This document shows, in pieces, positions 6,022-33,534 of a DNA stretch of 64,000 nt (position 1 is the first letter of the stretch; each line of letters begins with the position of its first letter). Made by a program: the position numbers and the translations under genes. Source of the DNA: an uncultured beta proteobacterium (GTDB lineage Bacteria; Pseudomonadota; Gammaproteobacteria; Burkholderiales; Burkholderiaceae_F); assembly GCA_963780715.1 (NCBI GenBank), contig CAWADK010000002.1, positions 21,150 to 85,149 of the forward strand, written 5' to 3'. The notes beneath the pieces are model-generated. The model ran no database searches. It was given only the letters and a program-made list of their open reading frames with translations, and was not told the DNA's origin.

Positions 6022-6822
6022 TCAGCCGGCGGCGGCCACTGCCCGCTTTGCCAGCACCGTGATCAGGTGCGCGCGATAGTCCGCCGACGCGTGCAGGTCC
6101 GTGTTGAGTCCTGCGGCCGGAACGCTGACGCCGTCGCACGACTCGGGTGCGAACTTCGCGCCGAGCTTGTCCTCGAGCGCCTTGACACGGAAGACGCCCG
6201 GCCCCGCCCCGGTGACCGCAACCCGCACGCCGCTTGCCGTCTTCGCGACGAACACACCGACCAGCGCGAAGCGCGAGGCCGGCTGCTTGAACTTCAGGTA
6301 GGCCGCCTTGGCGGGCACCGGGAAATGCACCGCCGTGATGATCTCGCCGGCGGCGAGCGCCGTCTCGTACAGACCCTTGAAGTAGTCGTCGGCGGCGATC
6401 TTGCGCCGGTCGGTCTGGATCGTGGCGCCCAGCCCGAGTACCGCGGCCGGATAGCAGGCGGCCGGATCGTTGTTCGCGAGCGAGCCGCCGATCGTTCCGC
6501 GGTTGCGCACCTGCCGGTCGCCGATGCCGCCCGCAAGCTGCGCCAGTGCCGGAATGCGCGACTGCACGTCCTTGGAGGCGGCAACCGCGGCATGCGTCGT
6601 CATCGCACCGATGACGACATTGTTGCCGTCGTTGCAGATGCCCTGCAGTTCGGTAATGCCCGCCAGGTCGATCCAGCCGGAAGGTGATAGCAGACCGAGC
6701 CGCATCGACGGCAGCGTCGACTGTCCGCCGGCCAGGATCTTGTCGTCGCCATGCTGGCCGGCGAGCTTGACAGCGTCGGCCACCGAGGCGGGGCGGTGAT
6801 AGTGCATTGCTTCCATCGTCAT
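6022..6822 (-). CDS. molybdo-hydroxylase FAD-binding (medium, CoxM-like) subunit
   Basis: 266-aa ORF containing ...ILAGGQSTLPSMRLGL...; located downstream of the large subunit. Confidence 0.85.
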   Translation of the reverse strand: MTMEAMHYHRPASVADAVKLAGQHGDDKILAGGQSTLPSMRLGLLSPSGWIDLAGITELQGICNDGNNVVIGAMTTHAAVAASKDVQSRIPALAQLAGGIGDRQVRNRGTIGGSLANNDPAACYPAAVLGLGATIQTDRRKIAADDYFKGLYETALAAGEIITAVHFPVPAKAAYLKFKQPASRFALVGVFVAKTASGVRVAVTGAGPGVFRVKALEDKLGAKFAPESCDGVSVPAAGLNTDLHASADYRAHLITVLAKRAVAAAG

Positions 6823-6835
6823 CTCCTCAGTGCCG

Positions 6836-9202
<2,367 letters not shown>

Positions 9203-9210
9203 CGCGCCTC

Positions 9211-9678
9211 CTACTTCATCGCCGCCGCGCCCTGCGCGACAGCCTTGACGATGTTCTGGTAGCCGGTGCAGCGGCACAGGTTGCCTTCCAGTCCCTCGCG
9301 GATCTGCGTGTCGGTCGCGTGCGGGTGATGCTGCACGAGATCGATCGCGCTCATCACCATGCCCGGCGTGCAGAAGCCGCACTGCAGCCCGTGGCAGGCC
9401 TTGAACGCGGCCTGCATCGGATGCATGCCTTCGGCCGGCGTGATGCCCTCGATCGTCGTGACCTCGGCGCCGGCCATCTGCAGCGCCAGCACGTTGCAGC
9501 TCTTGACTGCGCGGCCGTTGACATGAACGGTGCAGGCGCCGCACTGCGCCGTATCGCAGCCAACATGCGTGCCGGTCAGGCCAAGCTGCTCGCGCAGCAG
9601 CGTTACGAGTGAAGTTGATGGATCAACGTCGGCCGAAACGGCCTTGCCGTTGACCCGCAGCGAAAGCGGGACAGGCAT
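9211..9678 (-). CDS. (2Fe-2S)-binding small subunit (CoxS-like)
   Basis: 155-aa ORF with cysteine motifs [11 protein letters not shown] and CGFCTPGM; lies 8 nt upstream of the large subunit. Confidence 0.9.
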
Positions 9679-9886
9679 CCAAGTCTCCTTCGGAGGTTTT
9701 CTTATGCCGCCTTCTGCGGGTGGGCGGCCGAGCGTTGGACATTAACAGCAGCGAAAAGCCGGGCGCAACCGTCGTCGAGTGACATCGCGGCTTTCCGGCG
9801 GTATGGCGCGGCGCAGCACGCCTCGTCCTGGCGCAATAGAATGGAAGCTACTCAGTCTGCACACCGGCCAGGCGCCGGTCAGCCCC

Positions 9887-10885
9887 ATGGACAGCGTCGA
9901 CCTGCAGGTATTGAAGAAAGCCGACGAATGGCTGCGCGCCGGCCATGGTGCCGTCATGGGCACGGTGGTCAGGACCTGGGGTTCGGCCCCGCGGCCGGTC
10001 GGTTCGCTGGTCATCATCCGCGACGACGGGCTCGTTGTGGGTTCGGTCTCGGGCGGCTGCATCGAAGACGATCTCGTCGATCGCGTGCGCCGCCGCGCGG
10101 CAGCGGCAGTGGTCCCTGAGCGGGTCAAGTACGGCGTCACGGCCGACGAGGCCTTCAAGTTCGGCCTGCCCTGCGGCGGCACGATCGAACTCGTGCTCGA
10201 GCCGCTCGGCCCCGGCGCGCAGATCGATGTACTGCTGGAGAACGTCGCCGCCGGCCGGCACACTGTTCGCACGCTCGACCTGCGCAGTGGTGTCGTCACA
10301 CTCGCCGAAGGCGACGGTACCGATGTGCTCGACTGCAACGACGCGCGGCTCATCACCGCGTTCGGACCGCGCTGGCGACTGCTGGTGATCGGCGCCGGCC
10401 AGCTCACGCATTACGTCGCGCAGATGGCGCTGGCGCTCGACTACGCGGTGACGATCTGCGATCCACGCGAGGAGTACGCCGACGGCTGGCTCGTGCCCGG
10501 CACGCAGCTGGTGCGCACGATGCCCGACGACACCGTCACCGAATTCCGGCCCGACAAGCACACGGCGATCGTGGCCTTGACGCACGATCCGAAGCTCGAC
10601 GATCTTGCGCTGATGGAGGCACTGAAGTCCCAGGCCTTCTATGTCGGTGCGATCGGCTCGCAGAAGAACCAGGCCAAGCGCAAGGAGCGCCTGAAGGAGT
10701 TCGGCGTCAACGCCGAACAGCTCGAGCGCCTGCATGGCCCGGTCGGGCTCAAAAATGGCGCTCGCACGCCACCCGAGATCGCGGTGTCGATCCTCGCCGA
10801 GATGACGGCGACCAAGTACGGCTACCGCGTGCCGGCACCGGTGGCGCCCGGCCCGCGCTCGACGGTCGCCGGCTGCGTTTCGTGA
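9887..10885 (+). CDS. XdhC/CoxI-family Mo-cofactor insertion accessory protein
   Basis: From the ATG at 9887: MDSVDLQVLKKADEWLRAGHGAVMGTVVRTWGSAPRPVGS...SGGCIEDD. Divergent from the coxSLM-like operon. Confidence 0.85.
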   Translation: MDSVDLQVLKKADEWLRAGHGAVMGTVVRTWGSAPRPVGSLVIIRDDGLVVGSVSGGCIEDDLVDRVRRRAAAAVVPERVKYGVTADEAFKFGLPCGGTIELVLEPLGPGAQIDVLLENVAAGRHTVRTLDLRSGVVTLAEGDGTDVLDCNDARLITAFGPRWRLLVIGAGQLTHYVAQMALALDYAVTICDPREEYADGWLVPGTQLVRTMPDDTVTEFRPDKHTAIVALTHDPKLDDLALMEALKSQAFYVGAIGSQKNQAKRKERLKEFGVNAEQLERLHGPVGLKNGARTPPEIAVSILAEMTATKYGYRVPAPVAPGPRSTVAGCVS

Positions 10886-22416: not shown

Positions 22417-23502
22417 TCAGGTGTTCGACACCTTGATCGTCGGCATCTTGAGTGACATGTCCTTCGCTTTCTCGGCGATGCGCACGGCGACCTTGCGCGC
22501 GATGGCCTTGTAGGTCTGGGTGATGGCGCTGTCGGGCTCGGCGACGACGGTCGGGCGTCCCGAGTCCGCCTGCTCGCGGATGCGGATATCGAGCGGCAGG
22601 CTGCCGAGGTACTCGACGCCGTACTCCTCGGCCATCTTCCTGCCGCCGTCGGCGCCGAAGATGTGTTCGGCATGGCCGCATTTCGAGCAGATGTGCACGG
22701 CCATGTTCTCGACGATGCCGAGAATAGGGATGCTGACCTTCTCGAACATCTTGAGTCCCTTCTTGGCATCCATCAGCGCGATGTCCTGCGGCGTGGTCAC
22801 GATGACCGCACCGGTCACCGGCACCTGCTGCGCCAGAGTCAGCTGGATGTCCCCGGTGCCGGGCGGCATGTCGACGACGAGGTAGTCGAGGTCGTGCCAG
22901 TTGGTCTGCCCCAGCAGTTGCTGCAGCGCCTGCGTCACCATCGGTCCGCGCCAGACCATGGGCTGGTCGGCATCGATCATCAGGCCGATCGAACTCATCT
23001 GCAGGCCGTGATTTTCCATCGGCTCGATGGTCTGCCCGTCGGCCGACTCCGGCCGGCCCGAGATGCCCAGCATCGTGGGCTGGCTGGGACCGTAGATGTC
23101 GGCGTCGAGCACGCCGACGCGCGCACCCTCGGCAGCGAGCGCCAGCGCCAGGTTGGCAGCGACCGTGCTCTTGCCGACGCCGCCCTTGCCCGAGGCCACC
23201 GCAATGATGTTCTTGACGTTGGGCATGACCTTGAGGCCGCGCTGCACGGCATGCGCCACGATCTTCATCGTGACGTTGGCGCTGACGTTGGCCGCACCGG
23301 CGCCCTTCAGCGCTTCGATCACCGCGCGGCGCATCGGGGCGATCTGGCTCGCTGCCGGATAGCCGAGTTCGACGTCGACGCTCACATCGTCGCCCTCGAG
23401 GCGGATGTTGCGCGCCGAGCGGGAACTGACGAGGTCCTTGCCGGTATTGGGATCGATGATGCCCGCGAGCACCTGATTGACGCGGTCAGCGCTGATGGCC
23501 AT
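22417..23502 (-). CDS. apbC: Fe-S cluster carrier ATPase ApbC/Mrp
   Basis: 361 aa with an N-terminal DUF59-like domain, deviant Walker A ASGKGGVGKST and a CxxC motif (CSKCGH). Confidence 0.9.
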   Translation of the reverse strand: MAISADRVNQVLAGIIDPNTGKDLVSSRSARNIRLEGDDVSVDVELGYPAASQIAPMRRAVIEALKGAGAANVSANVTMKIVAHAVQRGLKVMPNVKNIIAVASGKGGVGKSTVAANLALALAAEGARVGVLDADIYGPSQPTMLGISGRPESADGQTIEPMENHGLQMSSIGLMIDADQPMVWRGPMVTQALQQLLGQTNWHDLDYLVVDMPPGTGDIQLTLAQQVPVTGAVIVTTPQDIALMDAKKGLKMFEKVSIPILGIVENMAVHICSKCGHAEHIFGADGGRKMAEEYGVEYLGSLPLDIRIREQADSGRPTVVAEPDSAITQTYKAIARKVAVRIAEKAKDMSLKMPTIKVSNT

Positions 23503-23755
23503 GGTGAAACGTCCTGGCTGTGCAATGAATCGAGCCGCTCAGTCTAATGGACCGCCTCGACTCAAGACCCCCTTGTTAGAATGCCTACTCATCGAACCTG
23601 CCCCGACATGACGAACACAACACGCCGGCCCCGCCTGCTGATTCCTCCGACCCTCGAGGTCGGGGGCCGCGTGCCCGCACGAATGTGCCCGCTGTCGTAC
23701 TGACAGCCCGCCGCGATTGCACTCGCGGCACGTCGCACATCGGAGCCTTGAAGCC

Positions 23756-25836
23756 ATGACCCGCCGCAGCCTCTTTGTCACCACCGCCCTGCCCTACGCC
23801 AACGGCCCGCTGCACGTCGGGCCACATCATGGAATACATCCAGGCCGACATCTGGGTGCGATTCCAGAAGATGCGCGGCCACGCCGTTCACTTCGTCGGC
23901 GCTGAAGACGCGCACGGCGCGCCGATCATGATTGCGGCCGAGCGGGCCGGAAAGACACCACAGCAGTTCATCGCCGATGTGCGCGCCACTCGGCCGCGTT
24001 ACCTCGACGGCTTCCACATCGGCTTCGACCACTGGCACACGACCGATTCGCCCGAGAACGTCGAGCTGTCGCAGTCGATTTACCGCGCCCTGAAGTCCGA
24101 CGGCCTCATCGATACGCGGACCATCGAGCAGTTCTACGATCCCGTGAAGGGCATGTTCCTGCCCGACCGCTACATCAAGGGCACTTGTCCCAAGTGTGGC
24201 GCGAAGGATCAGTACGGCGACAACTGCGAAGTGTGCGGCTCGACCTATGCGCCGACCGACCTGATCGAGCCCTATTCCGTGCTGACCGGTGCGCGACCGG
24301 AACTGCGCAGTTCAGAGCACTACTTCTTCCGCCTGGCGGATCCACGCTGTGTCGAGTTCCTGCGTGCATGGACCTCGGGCCGCAACCGGCACGGCGAGGC
24401 GCACCTGCAGCCGGAGGTCTATGCCAAGACGCAGGAGTGGCTGGGACCGGACGGCAAGGGTCTCGCGGACTGGGACATCTCGCGCGACGCGCCCTTTTTC
24501 GGCATCCCGATTCCGGACGCCGCCGACAAGTTCTTCTATGTCTGGTTCGACGCACCGATCGGCTACCTGGCGTCGCTCAAGGACTACTTCGCGAGCGGCA
24601 AGGCAAAGGCCAACGGCGAGCCGCGGAGCTTCGAGCGAATTCGTCACCGCCGCCGATGTCGAGCAGATCCACTTCGTCGGCAAGGACATCATTTATCACC
24701 ACACGCTGTTCTGGCCGGCGATGCTGCACTTCTCGGGCCGCAAGGTGCCGGACAACATCTACGTGCATGGATGGATCACTGTCAGCGGCGAGAAGATGAG
24801 CAAGAGCCGCGGCACCGGCATCGATCCGTTGCGTTATCTCGAACTCGGCATGAACCCCGAGTGGTTCCGCTACTACGTCGCCGCCAAGCTCAACGGACGC
24901 GTCGAGGACGTCGATTTCAACCCGGACGACTTCATGCAGCGGGTCAACAGCGACCTGATCGGCAAGTACGTCAACATCGCCAGCCGGGCGGCGAGCTTTT
25001 TGGTCCGCCAGTTCGATGGCCAGCTTGCACCGTCGGGTGATGCGTCCACTGGCAGCCTCGCGGTGGCGCTGGCCTCCGCCGACGACATCGCCATGCAACT
25101 CGACCAGCGCGAGTTCGGCAAGGCGCTGCGCGAAATCATGCGCATCGCCGACTACGCCAACGAGCACTTCGACCGCATGAAGCCATGGGAACTCGCCAAG
25201 GACCCGGCAAGCCGCGATCTGCTGCAGGGTGTCTGCAGCGATGTGCTGCGCTGCTTCCGCGTGCTGACGATCTACCTGACGCCGATCCTGCCCGCGACCT
25301 CCGAACGAGTCGCGCGCGAACTCTTCGGCATGAATCGGCCGTTCGCGTGGTCGGATCTCACCGCTGCTCCCGAACGCATCGCCCCTTACAAGCACCTGAT
25401 GACCCGCGTGGAAACCAAACAGATCGACGCCCTGTTCGAACCTCCCGCCGAGGCCGAGCCGGCCAAGCCCCTGCCGGGTGGCGCTGCCATTGCCGACACG
25501 ATCACGATCGACGACTTCGCCAAGCTCGACTTTCGCATCGCGAAGATCGTCACCGCATCGCACGTCGATGGCAGCGACAAGCTGCTCAAGCTGACGCTCG
25601 ACGCCGGCGAAGGGCGCGAGCGCACAGTCTTCTCGGGGATCAAGTCGGCCTACAAGCCGGAGGACCTGGTCGGGCGACTCACGGTGCTGGTCGCGAATCT
25701 CGCGCCGCGCAAGATGAAGTTCGGCGTCAGCGAAGGCATGGTGCTCGCCGCCAGCCACGCCGACGAAAAATCCAACCCCGGGATTTTTCTGCTCGATCCG
25801 CACCCGGGCGCGCAACCCGGCATGCGCGTCAAGTAG
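23756..25836 (+). CDS. metG: methionine--tRNA ligase; two frame breaks in this assembly
   Basis: ATG at 23756 gives [20 protein letters not shown]. It continues in ORF 23775..25040 (zinc knuckles CPKCG...CEVCG) and ORF 24289..25836 (KMSKS, C-terminal tRNA-binding domain). Breaks are at ~23819-23821 (GGG run) and ~24625-24640. Confidence 0.9.
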
Positions 25837-26093
25837 CGCTCTCCGCCTGACGCACGCCCCAGGCGCCTGCCGGGGGTAAAAGCGCCACCGCTCGAAACGG
25901 CCGGGCCGAGCACGTCTGCCCGATGGCCGCGCGTCAGCAGGCCTCCTAGGTTCCCGTGCAGGGCGATTGCCGCCGCGGCATCTGCCTCGTGCCCTGCCGC
26001 GGCTTGACCGCGATCAAACGCAGGTGCATCGCGCGGCAGTCATCGCCTTCAATTGCCAGTCGTTCGGCGACAATTCCGGCATTCGCTTTTGAT

Positions 26094-26116
26094 GCACATA
26101 TGATTAACATATGCGC
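26094..26116. promoter_or_regulatory. candidate operator: imperfect inverted repeat GCACATATG-ATTAA-CATATGCGC in an AT-rich patch
   Basis: 9-nt arms with 8/9 complementarity and a 5-nt spacer. It lies 26 nt upstream of the RHH gene start and is the only AT-rich stretch in the 305-nt metG/RHH intergenic region. Confidence 0.35.
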
Positions 26117-26141
26117 ACCTGACGATCGCTCATCAACCGCG

Positions 26142-26372
26142 ATGCCTGCCAAGACAGAGTCCAAGACTGCACGCCTGACGCTGCTGCTCGATCCGCGCAA
26201 GAAGGCGATGTTCGAGCAGATCTGCGCGGAGCACGACCTGACGCCGTCGCAGGTCGTGCGACAGCTGATCCGCGAGTACATCATCGAGCACTCGGGCAGC
26301 CGCCCACTGCCGCAGTGGCTGATCGTCGCGTCCAAACAGGCGAGCAACCGGCGCCGGACACACAAGCCGTGA
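26142..26372 (+). CDS. ribbon-helix-helix (CopG/Arc-like) small protein
   Basis: 76 aa from the internal ATG of ORF 25956..26372: MPAKTESKTARLTLLLDPRKKAMFEQICAEHDLTPSQVVRQLIREYI. This is a beta-strand followed by two helices. Its stop codon overlaps the GTG of the next gene. Confidence 0.65.
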   Translation: MPAKTESKTARLTLLLDPRKKAMFEQICAEHDLTPSQVVRQLIREYIIEHSGSRPLPQWLIVASKQASNRRRTHKP

Positions 26373-28388
26373 CTGCCCCGGCCGACTGGCTCGCCATCGA
26401 CTGGCTGCTGGCCGCGATCGCCGCGTGGATCGCCATCGGCGCGGCGGGCATGGTGCGGCCGCACGGCTTCTACGTCGTAGCGCGCATCCTTTTCCCGCTG
26501 GGCGCGCTGGTCAGCATCACCGTTGCCGTCTGCGCCGCGATCGCCGTGCGTCGGCACGCCTGAGACCGCCGTGCTGCCGCTGGGCCTGCCGGGCCTGCCG
26601 TTCCACCTTCGGCTCGACCCGCTGTCGGCTTTCTTTCTGCTGATCCTCGGCAGCGCCAGCGCCGGCGTCTCGGCCTTTGCTTCAGGCTACTTCCGCAAGG
26701 GCGAGGGCACGCCACCGGGGTTGCTGTGCCTGCTGTATCACCTGTTCCTCGCCAGCATGGCGATGGTGCTGCTGGCCGACGACGCCTATGTCTTCATGGT
26801 GATGTGGGAGCTGATGGCGCTGTCGTCGTTCTTCCTGGTGACAGCCAACCATGTGATTCCGGAAATCCGGCGCGCCGGCTACCTCTACCTGCTGATCGCG
26901 CACATCGGGGCGCTGGCGATCCTGCTCTGCTTCGGAGTGCTGCAAGCCAACACCGGGGACTACACCTTCGCCAACATGCGCGCGCAGGAGCTGACGCCGT
27001 TCTGGGCCTCGGTCGCATTCCTGCTGGCCTTCTTCGGCTTTGGTGCCAAGGCAGGCATCGTTCCGTTGCACATCTGGCTGCCCGAAGCGCACCCGGCGGC
27101 GCCCTCGCCGGTGTCGGCCCTGATGAGCGGAGTCATGCTGAAGACCGCCATCTATGGTCTGCTGCGCATCGGATTCGAAGTGCTGCAGACTCAACTCTGG
27201 TGGTGGGGCGTACTGGCACTGGCGATCGGGCTGGTGACGGCGCTCTTCGGCGTCGTCTTCGCCGCGATCCAGACGGACATGAAGCGCCTGCTGGCCTACT
27301 CATCGATCGAGAACATCGGGTTGCTCGTCGTCGGCATCGGACTGGCGATGCTCTTCGTCAGTTACGGCATGGCACCGATGGCGGCCCTCGCGCTCACCGC
27401 CGTGCTCTACCACGCGCTCAACCACGCGTTCTTCAAGAGCCTTCTCTTCCTCGGCACCGGCGCCGTGCTGCACGCCACGGGAGAGCGCAACCTCGGCAAG
27501 CTCGGCGGCCTGCTGCGCTTCATGCCGTGGGTCGGCTGGCTCTCGCTCGCAGGCGCGCTGGCCGCGGCCGGCCTGCCGCCGCTGAACGGCTTCGTGTCCG
27601 AGTGGCTGCTGCTGCAGAGTTTCCTCTTCACGCTCGGCCTCAAGAGCACGTTCGTCAACAACCTCGTGCCCGTCGTCGCGGCGGGTATTGCGCTGGTCGC
27701 CGCGATCGGCGGCTATGTGATGGTGAAATTCTTCGGTGTGATCTTCCTGGGACAGCCGCGCGAGGCGCGGCTCGCGGCTTCGCATGACGCCGTCTCGTGG
27801 GAGCGGGCCGGACTCGTGTGGCTGGCGATCGGCTGTGTCGCACTCGGCCTGTTCCCCGCCCAGGTCATTGCGCTGATCGACCCGGTCACACGGACTCTGG
27901 TCGGCGACGGCATCGGTCCGCAGGTTGCGGCCCACGGGTGGCTCATCCTCGCCCCGGTCGACCCGGACCGTGCCAGCTACAGCCCGTTGCTGTTCCTGCT
28001 GCTGATGGCGACGAGCTTCGCACTCGCGTTCGTGCTCGTGCGCTGGCTCTACCACGGTCGCGTGCGGCGCGCCGCGCCGTGGGACTGTGGCTACCCGCTG
28101 CAGACCGCGCGCATGCAGGACACCGCCGAGGGCTTCGGGCAGCCGATCCGCCAGGTGTTCGAACCTTTCTTCCGCATCGAGCGGCACCTGCCGACTCCCT
28201 TCGACAAGCAGCCCTACTACCACCTCGCCGCGGGCGATCACTTCTGGCACTGGCTGTATCTGCCGGTGGCGCGCCTGACGGAGGCGACGTCGCGCGTGGT
28301 CGGAATGCTGCAGCAAGGCCGGATCTCGACCTACCTGATGTACAGCTTCGTCACGCTGCTCGTGATGCTCGTGCTGGTGTTCCGATGA
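26369..28388 (+). CDS. hyfB: HyfB-like (NuoL-type) antiporter-like membrane subunit; one frame break
   Basis: GTG at 26369 (VTAPADWLAIDWLLAAIAAWIAIG...) joins ORF 26523..28388 near 26550. About 672 aa, the same as E. coli HyfB, with proton-translocating subunit motifs (WLPEAHPAAPSPVSALMSGVMLK). Confidence 0.85.
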
Positions 28389-29332
28389 CCGTCTACAACG
28401 TCATTGCCCAGGTGCTCGCGATCCTGCTCGCGGTGCTCGGCGCGCCCTTGCTCACCGGGTGGGTCAACCAGTGCCGCGCCTGGCTGCAGAACAAGAGCGC
28501 ACCGCCGCTGCTGCTGCCCTACCGGACGCTGCACAAGCTGTTCTGGAAGGAATCGGTCGTCGCCGAGAACGCGAGTCCGCTGTTCCGCATCGCGCCCTAC
28601 ATCATCTTCGGTGCGATGGTCCTCGCCTGCAGCATCGTACCCATCCTGTCGACGGATCTCCTGCTCGCTCCGGCCGCCGACGCGATCGCGCTGGTGGGAC
28701 TTTTCGCGCTGGCACGGGCCTTCATCGCGCTGGCCGCGATGGACATCGGCACCGCGTTCGGCACGCTCGGGGCGCGCCGCGAGATGCTGGTCGGCTTTCT
28801 TGCCGAACCAGCGCTGCTGATGGTGCTCTTCACCGCGGCGTTCCTGACACAGTCGACGTCGCTCGCCAACATCGTCGAAACGATCGCCAACCAGCCGTTC
28901 GCGATCTACCCGAGCCTGGCCTTCGCAGGGGTGGCCTTCACGATGGTGGCGCTGGCTGAAAACGCCCGCGTTCCGGTCGACAACCCGGCGACGCACCTCG
29001 AACTGACGATGATCCACGAGGCGATGATCCTCGAGTACTCCGGCCGCCACCTGGCACTCGTTGAGTGGGCCGCAAGCCTGAAACTCTTCGCCTACTCGAG
29101 CATCGGGCTTGCGATCTTCTTCCCATGGGGCATTGCGCACGGACACGATCCGCTCGGCATGCTGCTGGCAGCACCGGCCCTGATCCTGAAGCTCGCGGTC
29201 GGCGGCGCGGTGCTGGCGCTGATCGAGACCTTGTCCGCCAAGATGCGGATCTTCCGCGTACCCGAATTTCTCGCCGGCGCCTTCCTGCTGGCAGTGATCG
29301 GCATCCTCGTGCACTTCCTGCTCGGAGCCTAG
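28385..29332 (+). CDS. hyfC: HyfC/HycD-like (NuoH-type) membrane subunit
   Basis: 315 aa from MTVYNVIAQVLAILLAVLGAPLLTGWVNQ; contains ENARVPVDNPATHLELTMIHEAMILEYSG; ATGA overlap with the previous gene. Confidence 0.85.
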   Translation: MTVYNVIAQVLAILLAVLGAPLLTGWVNQCRAWLQNKSAPPLLLPYRTLHKLFWKESVVAENASPLFRIAPYIIFGAMVLACSIVPILSTDLLLAPAADAIALVGLFALARAFIALAAMDIGTAFGTLGARREMLVGFLAEPALLMVLFTAAFLTQSTSLANIVETIANQPFAIYPSLAFAGVAFTMVALAENARVPVDNPATHLELTMIHEAMILEYSGRHLALVEWAASLKLFAYSSIGLAIFFPWGIAHGHDPLGMLLAAPALILKLAVGGAVLALIETLSAKMRIFRVPEFLAGAFLLAVIGILVHFLLGA

Positions 29333-29338
29333 GTCACG

Positions 29339-29998
29339 ATGCCAAGTCTGGTTACGCAGCTGATCAACCTGTTCGCGGCGGTGCTGCTGCTGCTGTCGTT
29401 CGGGCTGCTGGCGCAGCGTCGCGTGCTGTCGCTGATTCATCTCTTCACGCTGCAGGGTCTCGTGCTGGCGGCGTCGACGACCACCATGGCCTACTTCACC
29501 GGCCAGCCGCACCTGTACTGGTCCGCCGCGATCACGCTCGTGCTGAAGGTCTTCCTGATGCCGTGGCTGCTGCACCGGATGATCGAGCGGCTGAATGTGC
29601 GCTGGGACGTCGAGACGCTGATCAACATCCCGACCACGATGCTGATCGGCATCGTGCTGGTCATCTTCTCCTTCAACCTCGCGCTGCCGATTTCCGGACT
29701 GTCGCAGTCGGTGGCGCGCGGCACGCTCGGCATCGCGCTCGCCTGCGTGCTGCTGTCGTTCCTGATGATGATCACGCGCACCAAGGCGATCCCGCAGGTG
29801 ATCGGCTTCCTCGCGATGGAAAACGCGCTGTTCTTCGCCGCGACCAGCGCCACCTACGGCATGCCCATGGTGGTCGAACTCGGCATCGCGCTCGACGTGC
29901 TGGTGGCGCTGATCATCCTCGGCGTGTTCATGTTCCAGATCCGCGAGCAGTTCGACAGCCTCGACATCCGGCATCTCGAGAAGCTGAAGGAAGAGTGA
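29339..29998 (+). CDS. hyfE: HyfE-like (NuoK/J-type) membrane subunit
   Basis: 219-aa polytopic ORF (E. coli HyfE has 216 aa). Its stop overlaps the next start. Confidence 0.8.
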   Translation: MPSLVTQLINLFAAVLLLLSFGLLAQRRVLSLIHLFTLQGLVLAASTTTMAYFTGQPHLYWSAAITLVLKVFLMPWLLHRMIERLNVRWDVETLINIPTTMLIGIVLVIFSFNLALPISGLSQSVARGTLGIALACVLLSFLMMITRTKAIPQVIGFLAMENALFFAATSATYGMPMVVELGIALDVLVALIILGVFMFQIREQFDSLDIRHLEKLKEE

Positions 29999-31456
29999 TG
30001 GAAGCGCTGCTCGCCATCCTCGGAATCCCGCTCGTCGGCGCCGCCGTCCTGGGCCTCATCGGCCACCAGGACCGTGCCTCGGAAGTCAACGTGGCCTTCA
30101 GCCTGGCCACCTTCATCGCCGCGGCGGTGCTGACGATCCAGATCATCGCCGACGGACCGATCCTCGTGCTGCACGAACAGTTCTTCGTCGACTCGCTGAA
30201 CGTCTTCCTGGTGGCGCTGACGGCGCTGGTTGCCTTCACCACGGCGCTCTTCGCACGCCCCTACATGCGCATCGAGCGCGACCACGGCAAGATGACCCCG
30301 CCGCGCATGCGGCTCTTCCACAGCATGTACCAGCTCTTCAGCTTCACGATGCTGCTGGCGCTGACGACCAACAACATGGGGCTGCTGTGGGTCGCGATGG
30401 AGGCGGCCACGCTGGCCACCGTGCTGCTGGTGGCCGTCTACCGCACGCCGGCCAGCCTCGAGGCCGCCTGGAAGTACTTCATCCTGTGCGGCGTCGGCAT
30501 CGCGCAGGCGCTGTTCGGCACGATCCTGCTTTACCTCGCGGCCGAACGCGTCATCGGCGCCGAGGGCCGCGGCCTGCTCTGGACCTATCTCGATGTGGCG
30601 AAAGGGCAACTCGAACCCACGGTGATCTCGCTGGCGTTCGTGTTCCTGCTGGTGGGATACGGCACCAAGGTCGGCCTCGCGCCGCTGCACAACTGGCTGC
30701 CCGATGCGCACGCAGAAGGCCCGACGCCGATTTCTGCCGTTCTCTCTGGCCTGCTGCTGAACGTCGCGCTCTACGCCGTACTGCGTTGCAAGGTGCTGAC
30801 CGACGGTGCACTCGGCACCCGCTTCGCCGGCGACCTGATGATGGGCTTCGGCCTGCTCTCGGTGGTGCTGGCGGCGTTCTTCATCTCGCGCCAGCGCGAC
30901 ATCAAGCGCATGTTCGCGTACTCGTCGATCGAGCACATGGGACTGATCACCTTCGCCTTCGGCATGGGCGGCCCGATCGCGAGCTTCGCCGGGCTGTTGC
31001 ACATGACCGTGCATTCGCTGGTGAAGTCCGCCATCTTCTTCGCGGTCGGCCACGCAGCGCAGAAGGCCGGCACGCAGGTGATGGACCAGATCCGCGGCTT
31101 GATCCGCGTGAATCCCACCGTCGGCTGGGGCCTGATGGTGGGCACGCTGGCGATCCTCGGCATGCCGCCCTTTGGCGTGTTCGCCAGCGAGTTCCTGATC
31201 CTGACCACGGCGATGCGCGAGTTCCCGTGGACCACGCCGTTCCTTCTGCTGGCACTTGGCGTTGCCTTTGCGGCAGTGCTGTCGAAGGTGCAGCCGATGG
31301 TCTTCGGCGAAACCACCGTGAAGCCGCTGGCGCATCCGCCGGCGCTGGTGCCGGTCTTCGTGCACCTCGGCCTGGCGCTGTCTGCTGGGCCTGTACATCC
31401 CGCCGTATCTCGAAGGCTGGTATCAGCAGGCGGCTCGCCTGGTCGCCGGAGGCTGA
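29998..31456 (+). CDS. hyfF: HyfF-like (NuoN/M-type) antiporter-like subunit; one frame break near the 3' end
   Basis: MEALLAILGIPLVGAAVLG... lies within ORF 29065..32130. After ~31380 the sensible C-terminus (LLGLYIPPYLEGWYQQAARLVAGG*) is in another frame and ends at the TGA at 31454-31456. Confidence 0.85.
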
Positions 31457-31459
31457 ACG

Positions 31460-33019
31460 ATGACCCGGCTGCAGACCGAATCCGGCGAACTCACGTTCGA
31501 GCACATCCGCGGTGCCGCGCCGGTCGGCTGGACAACCGTGGACACCGCGCAGTGGCGCGCGGCCGCGCAGGCGCTGGCGCGCGAGGGTGCCACGCTCGTT
31601 TCGCTGTGGGGCTCGGACCGGCACGATCTGGGCGATGGCCTGGCCATCATGGCGGCGTACTCGCGCGGCGACCGGTTGCTGTGCGCGCGCCTGCTGCTCC
31701 GTGCGAGTCCCTACGAATTTCCCTCGATCAGCGACGAGTTCCCGGCCGCCAATCGAATGCAGCGTGCACTTTACGACCTGCTCGGCGCCCGCGCACTGGG
31801 CGATGGCGACGAGCGCACGTGGCTGCGCCAAGGCGCCTGGCCGGCGGACTTCTTCCCACTGAGGCGCGACGCCGATGGCGCCCGTTCCTTCGCGTCGGAG
31901 CAGGAACACTACGCATTCGTTCCGGTGACCGGCGACGGCGTGCACGAGATCCCGGTCGGTCCGGTACATGCCGGCATCATCGAGCCGGGTCACTTCCGCT
32001 TCTCCGTGGTCGGCGAAAAGGTGCTGCGACTCGAGGAGCGCCTGGGTTTCGTGCACAAGGGCATCGACAAGCGCTTCGAGGGCATGCCACTGGACGACGC
32101 GGTCCGCCTCGCGGGGCGCGTGTCGGGTGACTCGACGGTCGCTTATGCCTGGGCGTATTCGATGGCGGTGGAGTCTGCCGCTGGCGTGACCGTCCCCGCG
32201 CGCGCGGCCTGGCTGCGGGCGCTATTGCTGGAACGCGAGCGCGTCGGCAACCATCTCGGTGATCTCGGCGCACTCGGCAACGACGCGGCGCTCGCCGTCG
32301 GGCTCGCTCACTTTTCGAGGTTGCGCGAACGGTGGCTGCGGGCCAATGACGAAGCCTTCGGCCATCGCCTGATGATGGATTGCATCATCCCCGGCGGCAT
32401 ACGGTCCGACCCCGACGCCGGCGGGCTCGAGCAGCTACGGCGTCAGTGCAGCGAACTCGCCGCCGAGGTGATGACGTTGCGCACGATCTACGACGAGCAC
32501 CCCGGACTGCAGGATCGCTTCCTGAACACCGGCGTGGTCACACCGGAACTCGCGGCGCAACTCGGTCTGCGTGGTCTCGCCGGACGCGCCAGCGGCCAGG
32601 CGCGCGATGTGCGCGTCGATGCGCGACCGGCACCTTACGATGCACTCGACGTCAAGGCCGCGGCGGACCGACGTGGCGACGTCGCGGCCCGCGTAGCGGT
32701 CCGCTTCGATGAAATATTCGAGTCGCTGCGGCTGATCGAGATCATCGTGCAAAGGCTCCCGGCGGGCGATGTGCACTGTGCGATTCCGCCAGTGGCCAGC
32801 GACGGCGTGCTCGGCGTCGGCTGGGTGGAAGGCTGGCGCGGCGACGTACTGGCCGCGGTGGAGGTGGCGACGGACGGACGCCTGCGGCGCTGCCATTGCC
32901 ACGATCCGTCCTGGCAGAACTGGCCGGTGCTCGAACACGCGGTGATCGGCAACATCGTTCCCGACTTTCCGCTGATCAACAAATCCTTCAACCTGAGCTA
33001 CTCCGGAGTGGACCGCTGA
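31460..33019 (+). CDS. NuoC-NuoD fusion / group-4 [NiFe]-hydrogenase large-subunit homologue lacking all Ni-Fe cysteine ligands (Ehr-type)
   Basis: 519 aa, colinear with HycE/HyfG. The L1 motif RxCGxCxxxH reads RVSGDSTVAY (32117-32146). The L2 motif DPCxxCxxR reads NLSYSGVDR (32990-33016), and the protein ends at that Arg. Confidence 0.9.
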   Translation: MTRLQTESGELTFEHIRGAAPVGWTTVDTAQWRAAAQALAREGATLVSLWGSDRHDLGDGLAIMAAYSRGDRLLCARLLLRASPYEFPSISDEFPAANRMQRALYDLLGARALGDGDERTWLRQGAWPADFFPLRRDADGARSFASEQEHYAFVPVTGDGVHEIPVGPVHAGIIEPGHFRFSVVGEKVLRLEERLGFVHKGIDKRFEGMPLDDAVRLAGRVSGDSTVAYAWAYSMAVESAAGVTVPARAAWLRALLLERERVGNHLGDLGALGNDAALAVGLAHFSRLRERWLRANDEAFGHRLMMDCIIPGGIRSDPDAGGLEQLRRQCSELAAEVMTLRTIYDEHPGLQDRFLNTGVVTPELAAQLGLRGLAGRASGQARDVRVDARPAPYDALDVKAAADRRGDVAARVAVRFDEIFESLRLIEIIVQRLPAGDVHCAIPPVASDGVLGVGWVEGWRGDVLAAVEVATDGRLRRCHCHDPSWQNWPVLEHAVIGNIVPDFPLINKSFNLSYSGVDR

Positions 33020-33534
33020 TGCTGCTGCTGGCCCGACAGATACTCAGGACGGGCATCTGCACCGAGCCGTCGCCCGAGCCAAACGACGACTGGCGCGTGG
33101 CCGGCGAGCGGATCCAGGCCGACGTCCTGGCGCTGCTGGGCCGCGCGCTGGCGATCCGGCAGGTCGATGCCGGGTCGTGCAACGGCTGTGAACTCGAAAT
33201 CCATGCGCTCAACAATCCCTACTACAACCTTGAAGGCCGCGGGCTGCACTTCGTGGCGAGTCCACGTCACGCCGACATGCTGCTGGTCACCGGCCCGGTG
33301 GCGCGCAACATGCGGGTCGCGCTGGAGCGCACCTACGAGGCCGTGCCCGAGCCGAAGCTGGTCGTGGCGATCGGTGACTGCGGCTGCAACGGCGGCATCT
33401 TTGGCGAGAGTTATGCCAGTTGCGGCAAGGTTGCCAATGTCATTCCGGTCGATGTCGCCGTACCCGGGTGTCCGCCGCGGCCACTGGAAATTCTGCGCGG
33501 CATCCTGACTGCCGTGCATCGCCTGAAGGCTTGA
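33019..33534 (+). CDS. NuoB/HycG-type small subunit with [4Fe-4S] ligands retained
   Basis: 171 aa from MLLLARQ (residue 42 of ORF 32896..33534). Cysteine motifs are GSCNGCE, GDCGCNGG and PGCPP. ATGA-type overlap with the large subunit. Confidence 0.85.
   Translation: MLLLARQILRTGICTEPSPEPNDDWRVAGERIQADVLALLGRALAIRQVDAGSCNGCELEIHALNNPYYNLEGRGLHFVASPRHADMLLVTGPVARNMRVALERTYEAVPEPKLVVAIGDCGCNGGIFGESYASCGKVANVIPVDVAVPGCPPRPLEILRGILTAVHRLKA

Follow-up and report, generated by a model that had tools for sequence, protein, structure and literature searches.

A predicted Ehr-type operon, related to group-4 hydrogenases but lacking nickel-iron ligands, and its candidate regulator in an uncultured beta proteobacterium

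Subunits resembling those of respiratory complex I and of membrane-bound hydrogenases are encoded within a 64,000-nucleotide stretch of DNA (hereafter the window) from an uncultured beta proteobacterium of the Burkholderiales (assembly GCA_963780715.1, contig CAWADK010000002.1, positions 21,150 to 85,149; G+C content 66%). As judged by homology and conserved residues, the operon encodes an Ehr-type complex (energy-converting hydrogenase related) of the Ehr/Hyq family, relatives of the group-4 hydrogenases without the Ni-Fe site. The assignment, proposed in an earlier note made from the sequence alone, is upheld because the core subunits are homologous, other residues stand in place of all four Ni-Fe cysteines, the ligands of the NuoB-type cluster do not vary among the aligned orthologues, and NuoI-like, FdhF and Hyp genes do not recur as neighbors in 80 related genome loci. 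The best explanation, to which we assign a probability of about one half, is a functional operon whose product has a single-cluster head that would exchange electrons with a cytoplasmic partner, coupled to ion translocation. The architecture has already been described, including in the same bacterial class, and this locus adds no new architecture.

Seven chained genes on the plus strand span positions 26142-33534, a gene for a ribbon-helix-helix protein (RHH_9) and then the six-subunit, complex I/hydrogenase-like set (lengths in amino acids, aa):

26142-26372, plus strand: RHH_9 gene, 76 aa, ribbon-helix-helix (PF19839, E = 1.5e-29); its TGA overlaps the ehrA start (GTGA)
26369-28388, plus strand: ehrA (hyfB/NuoL-like, antiporter-type), GTG start at 26369; repaired product of 672 aa
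28385-29332, plus strand: ehrB (hyfC/NuoH-like), 315 aa; ATGA overlap with ehrA
29339-29998, plus strand: ehrC (hyfE-like membrane subunit), 219 aa; 6-nucleotide gap after ehrB
29998-31456, plus strand: ehrD (hyfF/NuoN-M-like, antiporter-type), repaired product of 485 aa; TGATG joins it to ehrC
31460-33019, plus strand: ehrL (hyfG-like fused NuoC-NuoD large subunit), 519 aa; 3-nucleotide gap after ehrD
33019-33534, plus strand: ehrS (hyfI/NuoB-like small subunit), 171 aa; TGATG joins it to ehrL; four cysteines for a predicted single [4Fe-4S] cluster

Read directly from the sequence, the junctions in chain order are GTGA, ATGA, a 6-nucleotide gap, TGATG, a 3-nucleotide gap and TGATG. The earlier note had given the first five of these as they are, but had called the last "ATGA-type". 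It had also described the whole span as a six-gene operon; the six structural genes stand, but the chain has seven members, since position 26142 is the start of the RHH_9 gene and hyfB begins only at 26369.

The six proposed subunit types (NuoL, NuoH, HyfE, NuoN/M, NuoCD and NuoB) are all borne out by matches in Pfam, NCBIfam and the PDB. EhrA matches PF00361 (E = 5e-49) and exceeds the cut-off of the NCBIfam "hydrogenase 4 subunit B" model (879 bits, cut-off 667), as EhrD does for PF00361 (E = 4e-53) and "hydrogenase 4 subunit F" (852 bits, cut-off 543). EhrB matches PF00146 (E = 1e-32), EhrS matches PF01058 (E = 3e-31), and EhrL matches both PF00329 and PF00346. EhrC matches the NCBIfam "hydrogenase 4 membrane subunit" model (E = 3e-25) below its cut-off, and the operon products likewise score under the cut-offs of the NCBIfam NuoD and NuoB models.

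The best solved relative of EhrL is HycE of E. coli formate hydrogenlyase (7z0s_E, E = 2e-63), and alignment with this chain reveals the loss of the metal site. The four Ni-Fe cysteines of HycE are replaced in EhrL by Ser, Ser, Ser and Gly, with RVSGDSTVAY facing RVCGICGFAH and NLSYSGVDR facing DPCYSCTDR. The C-terminus of EhrL is an arginine aligned to residue 549 of the 581-residue HycE chain, with no C-terminal extension; in HycE maturation, HycI cleaves at this position. EhrL therefore has neither the cofactor ligand set nor a processing extension. Residues of its former Ni-Fe pocket include Ser222, Asp224, Ser225, Asn511 and Ser513. The replacement of the cysteines extends to 79 aligned betaproteobacterial orthologues and to most related cluster representatives. 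Across the alignment of these orthologues with the window protein (80 sequences), the SGD motif never varies in its G and D, nor does most of DFPLINKSFNLsYsG; the motifs VGPxHAGxIEPGHxRFS and HDPSWQNWP are likewise invariant. In EhrS, the CNGC, GDC and GCPP cysteines show no variation across the 77 aligned sequences (the window and 76 orthologues), and the protein is thus predicted to be able to bind one proximal, or N2-type, [4Fe-4S] cluster.

The membrane subunits have been conserved at the positions associated with ion translocation. In EhrA, a Glu of transmembrane helix (TM) 5, a Lys of TM7, the FFK Lys of TM11 and the GFxSEW Glu of TM12 are invariant in 57 sequences, and the key residues of EhrD (TM5 Glu, TM7 Lys, TM11 Lys and TM12 Glu) are invariant in 73; the FFK/VKS Lys and GFxSE(W/F) Glu motifs are shared by the two proteins. 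The EhrB loop HLELTMIHEA..LEYS and two membrane glutamates of EhrC are also invariant.

What the operon lacks was assessed by Pfam and NCBIfam scans of 54 open reading frames (ORFs) of the window that were picked as coding-like. None of them encodes a HyfA/HyfH-type 4Fe-4S ferredoxin, HyfD, FdhF, FocA/B, Hyp or HycI, which agrees with the earlier claims that the ferredoxin-like subunits and HyfD, any formate dehydrogenase or formate channel, and the hyp and hycI maturation genes are missing. The survey was extended to 80 genome loci with related operons, nearly all labeled Betaproteobacteria and including Aromatoleum, Azoarcus, Ramlibacter, Rhodoferax, Accumulibacter, Sulfuricella, Sulfuritalea, Thiobacillus, Gallionellales and Caballeronia. 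The gene order A-B-C-D-L-S is kept in all of them wherever the contig reaches. Unbiased clustering of the flanking ORFs gave metG (22 loci), RHH_9 (19), scpA (14) and apbC (14) as recurrent families, along with a histidine-kinase family and a SulP transporter. NuoI/ferredoxin-like proteins, FdhF or other formate dehydrogenases, and Hyp proteins were not among the recurrent neighbors in these loci; partners of the NuoI-like, Hyp or FdhF kind, encoded adjacently and required for function, had been named in the earlier note as grounds for refuting its reading. NuoE, NuoF, NuoG and NuoI were found neither in the operon, nor in the window scans, nor among the recurrent neighbors.

As assembled, two of the structural genes are not continuous reading frames: the first 59 codons of ehrA (hyfB) are out of frame with the rest, and the last 24 codons of ehrD (hyfF) are shifted. 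Alignment to orthologous DNA places one surplus base in the window at each break, near 26548-26554 in ehrA and at T31381 in ehrD. The first is absent from five relatives, four of them 92-94% identical to the window in DNA, and the second is absent from four more distant orthologues. Deletion of one base per site gives EhrA of 672 and EhrD of 485 residues, the lengths called in three intact relatives (L081-L083), and outside the two shift sites neither gene has an extra stop codon. The same type of +1 shift is present in essential genes of the window, in metG near 24636 and twice in leuS, at about 48650 and 49100. Because metG and leuS are broken alike and close relatives are intact, the ehrA and ehrD breaks are very probably sequencing errors of the assembly and not pseudogenisation. 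With five such shifts, each consistent with one surplus base in a long conserved gene, single-base insertion errors appear to be systematic in this assembly, and ORF-based readings elsewhere in the window should allow for them.

EhrL has thousands of homologues, of which 1,050 representatives of 50%-identity clusters match at E<=1e-30. R(V/I)SGD(S/T) and NLSY(S/A)G are found in most of the closest full-length representatives; a minority of the representatives retain CGxC and CxxC and are true hydrogenases. The intact relatives L081-L083 have the same seven-gene layout, with structural products of 672, 315, 219, 485, 518 and 171 aa. The best genome match to the window EhrL reaches only 80% identity, and EhrC is 84-96% identical to its orthologues in L001, L002, L003 and L009. 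EhrC and EhrD are 93-96% identical to their counterparts in L001 and L002, compared with 71-80% for EhrL; in L002, EhrL is at 71% and the membrane subunits at 86-93%. Ratios of nonsynonymous to synonymous substitution rates (dN/dS), computed against three relatives with intact genes, were 0.08-0.19 for EhrA, EhrB and EhrD, 0.08-0.22 for EhrC, 0.11-0.24 for EhrS and 0.23-0.27 for EhrL, with metG at 0.13-0.33 and RHH_9 at 0.29-0.38; the membrane arm is therefore at least as constrained as the tRNA synthetase gene. Since these ratios are low, the gene order is kept, L081-L083 are intact, and metG and leuS share the +1 shifts, the operon is, frame breaks aside, most likely functional and under purifying selection.

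By homology, the six subunits would build a minimal complex-I-like machine, in which EhrL and EhrS form a small cytoplasmic head on EhrB and EhrC, with EhrD and then EhrA next in the membrane. The single EhrS cluster would pass electrons between a cytoplasmic partner and a substrate held in a remodeled pocket at the EhrL/EhrS/EhrB interface, and that substrate would probably be a membrane quinone. Since there is no NuoI-type connecting subunit, the electron partner would dock directly; a soluble ferredoxin or flavodoxin is one candidate. The redox step would drive, or be driven by, translocation of protons or sodium ions through EhrB/EhrC, EhrD and EhrA. The complex is not a canonical [NiFe]-hydrogenase.

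Several points weigh against this proposal of a redox-coupled ion pump. The tyrosine that serves as a quinone ligand in complex I (Tyr87 of Thermus thermophilus Nqo4, in RMDY) faces the Gly of EhrL RVSG in a phmmer alignment (2fug_4), and any quinone binding would therefore not be complex-I-like in detail. EhrL is the fastest-evolving subunit, with dN 2-5 times that of the membrane subunits though still under purifying selection, and such rapid evolution would also fit a mainly structural head. The association with SulP transporters, described below, hints at a role tied to the transport of anions, which would not be expected from a plain respiratory model. In vivo H2 phenotypes have, moreover, been reported for the alphaproteobacterial homologue, Hyq (PMC3357923). 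In the literature searched, no expression or biochemical data on betaproteobacterial members were found, and searches on the Cupriavidus locus tags, on betaproteobacterial hyfB and on SulP together with hyf did not turn up functional data.

Regulation of the operon probably involves the first gene of the chain. The RHH_9 protein scores 102 bits against PF19839 (cut-off 23.4), covering model positions 2-63 of 65, and 34 residues are invariant across 26 homologues. When an RHH_9 alignment was used to fetch 80 metagenome loci, the gene was found to adjoin ehrA in 64 of them, with ehrA downstream on the same strand in 38, divergent in 22, and represented by its N-terminus only in 4; its presence is not incidental, because ehrA is immediately adjacent in so many of the loci. 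Upstream of the gene lies the following feature:

26093-26117, no strand assigned: AT-rich, operator-like element TGCACATATGATTAACATATGCGCA, an inverted repeat 25 nucleotides 5' of the RHH_9 start codon

The core of this element, (G)ATTAACAT, recurs 5' of RHH_9 in loci with ehr and in loci with SulP. In the form (G)ATTAACAT / ATGTTAAT it precedes RHH_9 in L001-L010, L014, L016, L020, L021, L024, L046, L067, L069 and L077, sometimes in two or three direct copies (Aromatoleum, L020), and it is conspicuous against genomes of 60-70% G+C. The 7-mer ATTAACA/TGTTAAT was counted 41 times across 1.32 Mb of loci; the 1 kb upstream of ehrA accounts for 18 of these, compared with about 2 expected. The element is inferred to be a candidate RHH_9 operator, and the 76-aa protein is the probable DNA-binding regulator of the operon and would act at the GATTAACAT element.

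A new side observation is that, in Betaproteobacteria, the RHH_9 gene with its upstream GATTAACAT motif adjoins ehr, a SulP anion transporter, or both. Twelve of the RHH_9 loci without an adjacent ehrA were informative, and in nine of these a SulP-family transporter (PF00916 plus STAS) adjoins RHH_9. In the slot metG - RHH_9 - X - bamE-like - scpA, one SulP gene of about 575-620 aa stands where the window has its six ehr genes; this arrangement is found in seven Burkholderiaceae-type contigs (L094, L099, L100, L116, L120, L125 and L126), which retain RHH_9 and its GATTAACAT motif. In nine genome loci (L020, L027, L045, L062, L064, L068, L070, L071 and L079), belonging to Sulfuricella, Sulfuritalea, Thiobacillus, Gallionellales, one Rhodocyclaceae metagenome-assembled genome (MAG) and four other MAGs, SulP lies directly 5' of ehrA on the same strand, at positions of about 2.6-4.9 kb in each locus. 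This arrangement is seen in sulfur- and iron-oxidising autotrophs as well as in Rhodocyclaceae. L062 and L068 each carry two SulP genes in tandem, and in L045, L027 and L064 the region upstream holds divergent histidine-kinase genes. RHH_9 and SulP-ehrABCDLS are arranged divergently in the Rhodocyclaceae locus.

The SulP genes directly 5' of ehrA fall into at least three subfamilies. NCBIfam models assigned no SulP substrate: DauA and BicA score best but under their cut-offs, and four of five proteins reach only the generic "sulfate permease" subfamily. A further gene appears near ehr in two Sulfuricella loci, where it is convergent to ehrS, and 2.4 kb downstream in the Thiobacillus locus:

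L045:12187-13245, L037:2951-4009 and L062:14404-15450, minus strand: beta-carbonic-anhydrase-like gene, 352 aa, with zinc motifs CMDGR and HRGC

Its product matches the CsoSCA catalytic domain (PF20686, 30.9 bits, cut-off 21.5). Limited literature searches found no mention of an RHH_9-SulP-ehr linkage.

These gene arrangements suggest that in Betaproteobacteria Ehr may partner an anion transporter or take its place, both being governed by a single regulator. A stronger form of the idea is that Ehr and SulP make up one regulon, controlled by RHH_9 through the GATTAACAT operator, in which Ehr, instead of being a respiratory enzyme of the usual sort, would pump ions or act as a vectorial converter, powering anion uptake or standing in for it. 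We regard this as tentative and, on balance, rather unlikely; if it were true, the anion could be bicarbonate, sulfate or a C4-dicarboxylate.

It is likewise unlikely, somewhat more so, that the complex is a redox-independent cation or proton transporter of the Mrp kind, in which the head is a remnant with a structural or regulatory role, such as redox sensing. The metal site for catalysis is gone, EhrC and EhrD have remained far more alike than EhrL in L001 and L002, the dN of EhrL is well above that of the membrane subunits, and the linked secondary anion transporter would use an ion gradient. A remnant head is difficult to reconcile with the invariance of all four EhrS cluster cysteines, with purifying selection on EhrL and its invariant pocket motifs (GD, EPGH, HDPSWQNWP and DFPLINKSFN), or with retention of the head in every member of the family.

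More improbable again is a true H2-metabolising "endo-hydrogenase" on the pattern of Hyq, a reversible H2:ubiquinone oxidoreductase with a non-canonical catalytic site in the large subunit. The hyqRBCEFGI operon of Azorhizobium caulinodans comprises seven genes in 7.4 kb, a small regulator gene, R, and then the same six structural genes in the same order as here (PMC2650096). HyqG, too, is without both CxxC motifs, and four cysteines for the cluster are found in HyqI (PMC2650096, PMC3357923). NifA was reported to induce the operon; a mutant from which the operon had been deleted grew more slowly under diazotrophic conditions, with changes in H2 recycling (uptake) as well as in H2 evolution in vivo (PMC2650096, PMC3357923). 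Its authors proposed a reversible H2:ubiquinone oxidoreductase, yet they considered an Ni-Fe site "uncertain, if not unlikely" (PMC2650096, PMC3357923), and the activity was deduced from whole-cell phenotypes alone. The statement in the earlier note that no physiological function has been shown for the group is incomplete, given the reported part of Hyq in diazotrophic growth and H2 turnover (PMC2650096, PMC3357923). Operon-dependent H2 turnover, which that note would have taken as refutation, has been claimed only for this homologue but never biochemically shown (PMC3357923).

For the window operon, the hydrogenase reading gains from Azospirillum orthologues that are 42-64% identical to the window proteins and have the R-I-S-G-D motif in common with them. 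Against it, EhrL keeps no Ni-Fe ligand and stops at the processing-site arginine of HycE, and HyqG residues Cys258, Cys491 and Cys497, three cysteines reported as fully conserved in that protein, correspond here to Gly273, Ile506 and Leu512. The scans of the window found no hyp gene, and within the 305 nucleotides upstream of the operon there is neither a NifA box (TGT-N10-ACA) nor a good GG-N10-GC sigma-54 promoter. The catalytic-subunit sequences of the comparable Acidithiobacillus ferrooxidans cluster were, moreover, classed by HydDB as non-hydrogenase (PMC7735108).

We consider it very doubtful that the operon supplies the membrane module of a formate-linked complex, either a formate dehydrogenase (FDH)-Ehr assembly or one resembling formate hydrogenlyase, with the FDH and connecting ferredoxin subunits encoded elsewhere. 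The idea has precedents, in that Geobacter sulfurreducens had its Ehr subunits at their highest abundance on formate (PMC7894505), an FDH-Ehr complex has been proposed in Riflemargulisbacteria and Saganbacteria (PMC6349859), and the A. ferrooxidans cluster has been suggested to take part in oxidising formate (PMC7735108). The window scans, however, detected no gene of the fdh, NuoI-like or HycB-like kinds, no such partner recurs beside the 80 genome loci, and the operon sits amid the housekeeping genes metG, apbC and scpA. Finally, a decaying pseudogene cluster, for which the interruption of two of the six genes and one recent paper treating Geobacter Ehr as non-functional (PMC13194489) might be cited, is highly improbable and was rejected, since metG and leuS are broken alike, each break is one surplus base in conserved sequence that intact relatives lack, no stops occur beyond the shift sites, and dN/dS is well below 1.

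The remainder of the window is largely housekeeping in character, with apbC, metG, a gene for a BamE-like lipoprotein, scpA, modAB, polA, uvrD, leuS, lptE, holA and pilT/U; a xanthine-dehydrogenase-type cluster and a pyrroloquinoline quinone (PQQ) dehydrogenase gene lie upstream of the operon. That cluster, 16 kb upstream and of xanthine-dehydrogenase/CoxL type, holds the only other iron-sulfur or molybdenum genes that the scans of the window found; it occupies 6022-10885 and encodes FAD-binding, MoCoBD large and [2Fe-2S] small (9211-9738) subunits, with a divergent XdhC-like gene. Its small- and large-subunit ORFs overlap by about 400 nucleotides, possibly because of one more frame error. A short way upstream of the operon, the gene for an ApbC/Mrp (NUBPL-type) Fe-S carrier (22417-23538, minus strand) is divergent from metG (23775-25836, plus strand). 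Divergent metG-apbC pairs are common in Proteobacteria. The pair accompanies ehr, on either side, in about 22 of the 80 genome loci; its proximity is probably inherited synteny and not a functional link, and apbC as a dedicated assembly factor was set aside, the pair being next to ehr in only about a quarter of the loci. Between 56000 and 62000 the G+C content is about 0.60, as against 0.66-0.68 elsewhere, in a region with genes for a tetratricopeptide repeat (TPR) protein, a PAP2 protein, a subtilase-like protein, glutathione peroxidase and pilT/pilU-type ATPases; the drop could mark an island or simply reflect gene content of another kind. Rfam gave no match anywhere in the window, a sigma-70 scan found no promoter, and intragenic terminator-like matches were near shuffle expectation.

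Ehr/Hyq complexes are widespread and stand at the evolutionary junction of membrane hydrogenases and complex I. The only physiological claim made for them, that of Hyq as a hydrogenase, is contested, and no biochemical function has been established. The complex described here is worth study because strong purifying selection is combined with an intact cluster site and intact ion-translocation residues, and the betaproteobacterial clade is without the cysteines suggested as a substitute catalytic site in Hyq. RHH_9 with its DNA motif, and the SulP partner, suggest test conditions for culturable Cupriavidus, Aromatoleum and Ramlibacter, with anion or inorganic-carbon limitation as candidate conditions for an Ehr role.

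Among known systems, the closest in layout are the hyfBCEFGI clusters of Cupriavidus metallidurans CH34 (Rmet_4666-4671) and C. necator H16 (H16_A2196-2201), judged unlikely to function in lithotrophy (PMC2864759), and that of A. ferrooxidans, whose catalytic subunit is the HydDB non-hydrogenase mentioned above (PMC7735108). Like the window, these have six genes in the same order and no hyfA, hyfD, hyfH or maturation genes. The Cupriavidus clusters are, moreover, betaproteobacterial like the window operon, and a hydrogenase role was judged unlikely (PMC2864759, PMC7735108); the window organism differs in belonging to an uncultured Burkholderiales lineage. The name Ehr was given in Geobacter, in work cited in PMC7894505, and in G. 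sulfurreducens the genes GSU0739-0745 encode EhrA-1, A-2, B, C, D, L and S (PMC7894505, PMC13194489). Genome papers describe Ehr complexes as relatives of the group-4 hydrogenases that lack Ni-Fe motifs and whose function is unknown (PMC6349859, PMC4378227, PMC10284858, PMC10432482, PMC4758237). The Geobacter complex has the same subunit types and a large subunit without Ni-Fe cysteines (PMC7894505, PMC13194489, PMC10284858), but two copies of EhrA; the RHH_9 regulator gene is an addition of the window operon.

E. coli Hyf and formate hydrogenlyase-1 (Hyc, 7Z0S) are related through HycE, the closest structure, and through the hydrogenase 4 B and F models whose cut-offs EhrA and EhrD reach. The window operon departs from them in its lack of Ni-Fe ligands and of a C-terminal extension for HycI/HyfK processing, and in having no HyfA/HyfH/HycB/HycF ferredoxin subunits, HyfD, FdhF, FocB or HyfR. 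Relative to complex I it is without NuoE, F, G and I, and without NuoA/J/K as separate genes; homologues of NuoB, C, D, H, L and M/N, an N2-type cluster site and conserved ion-translocation residues are common to both.

Hyq, described in A. caulinodans and other diazotrophic Alphaproteobacteria, resembles the window operon in gene layout, with a small first gene followed by B, C, E, F, G and I in 7.4 kb, and in having a large subunit without CxxC motifs, and the SGD motif extends to the Azospirillum Hyq-type orthologues, which stood in for A. caulinodans HyqG in the comparison with the window. The two differ in genetic context, the window operon having no NifA/sigma-54 region, no nif context and housekeeping neighbors. 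Neither RHH_9 nor SulP was seen in the four alphaproteobacterial Hyq-type loci examined (L084 and L166-L168), one of which has an XRE-type helix-turn-helix gene upstream in place of RHH_9. In L166 (4310-6530), the Hyq-type operon is split between its F and G genes by an opposite-strand, McrB-like AAA_5 gene. In the large subunit, Ile506 and Leu512, which face two of the conserved HyqG cysteines, are invariant in the betaproteobacterial clade. Because those cysteines are absent and there is no NifA box or credible sigma-54 promoter, the window operon is, on these comparisons, best placed as a sister of Hyq and not as a member of the nif-linked Hyq group as defined.

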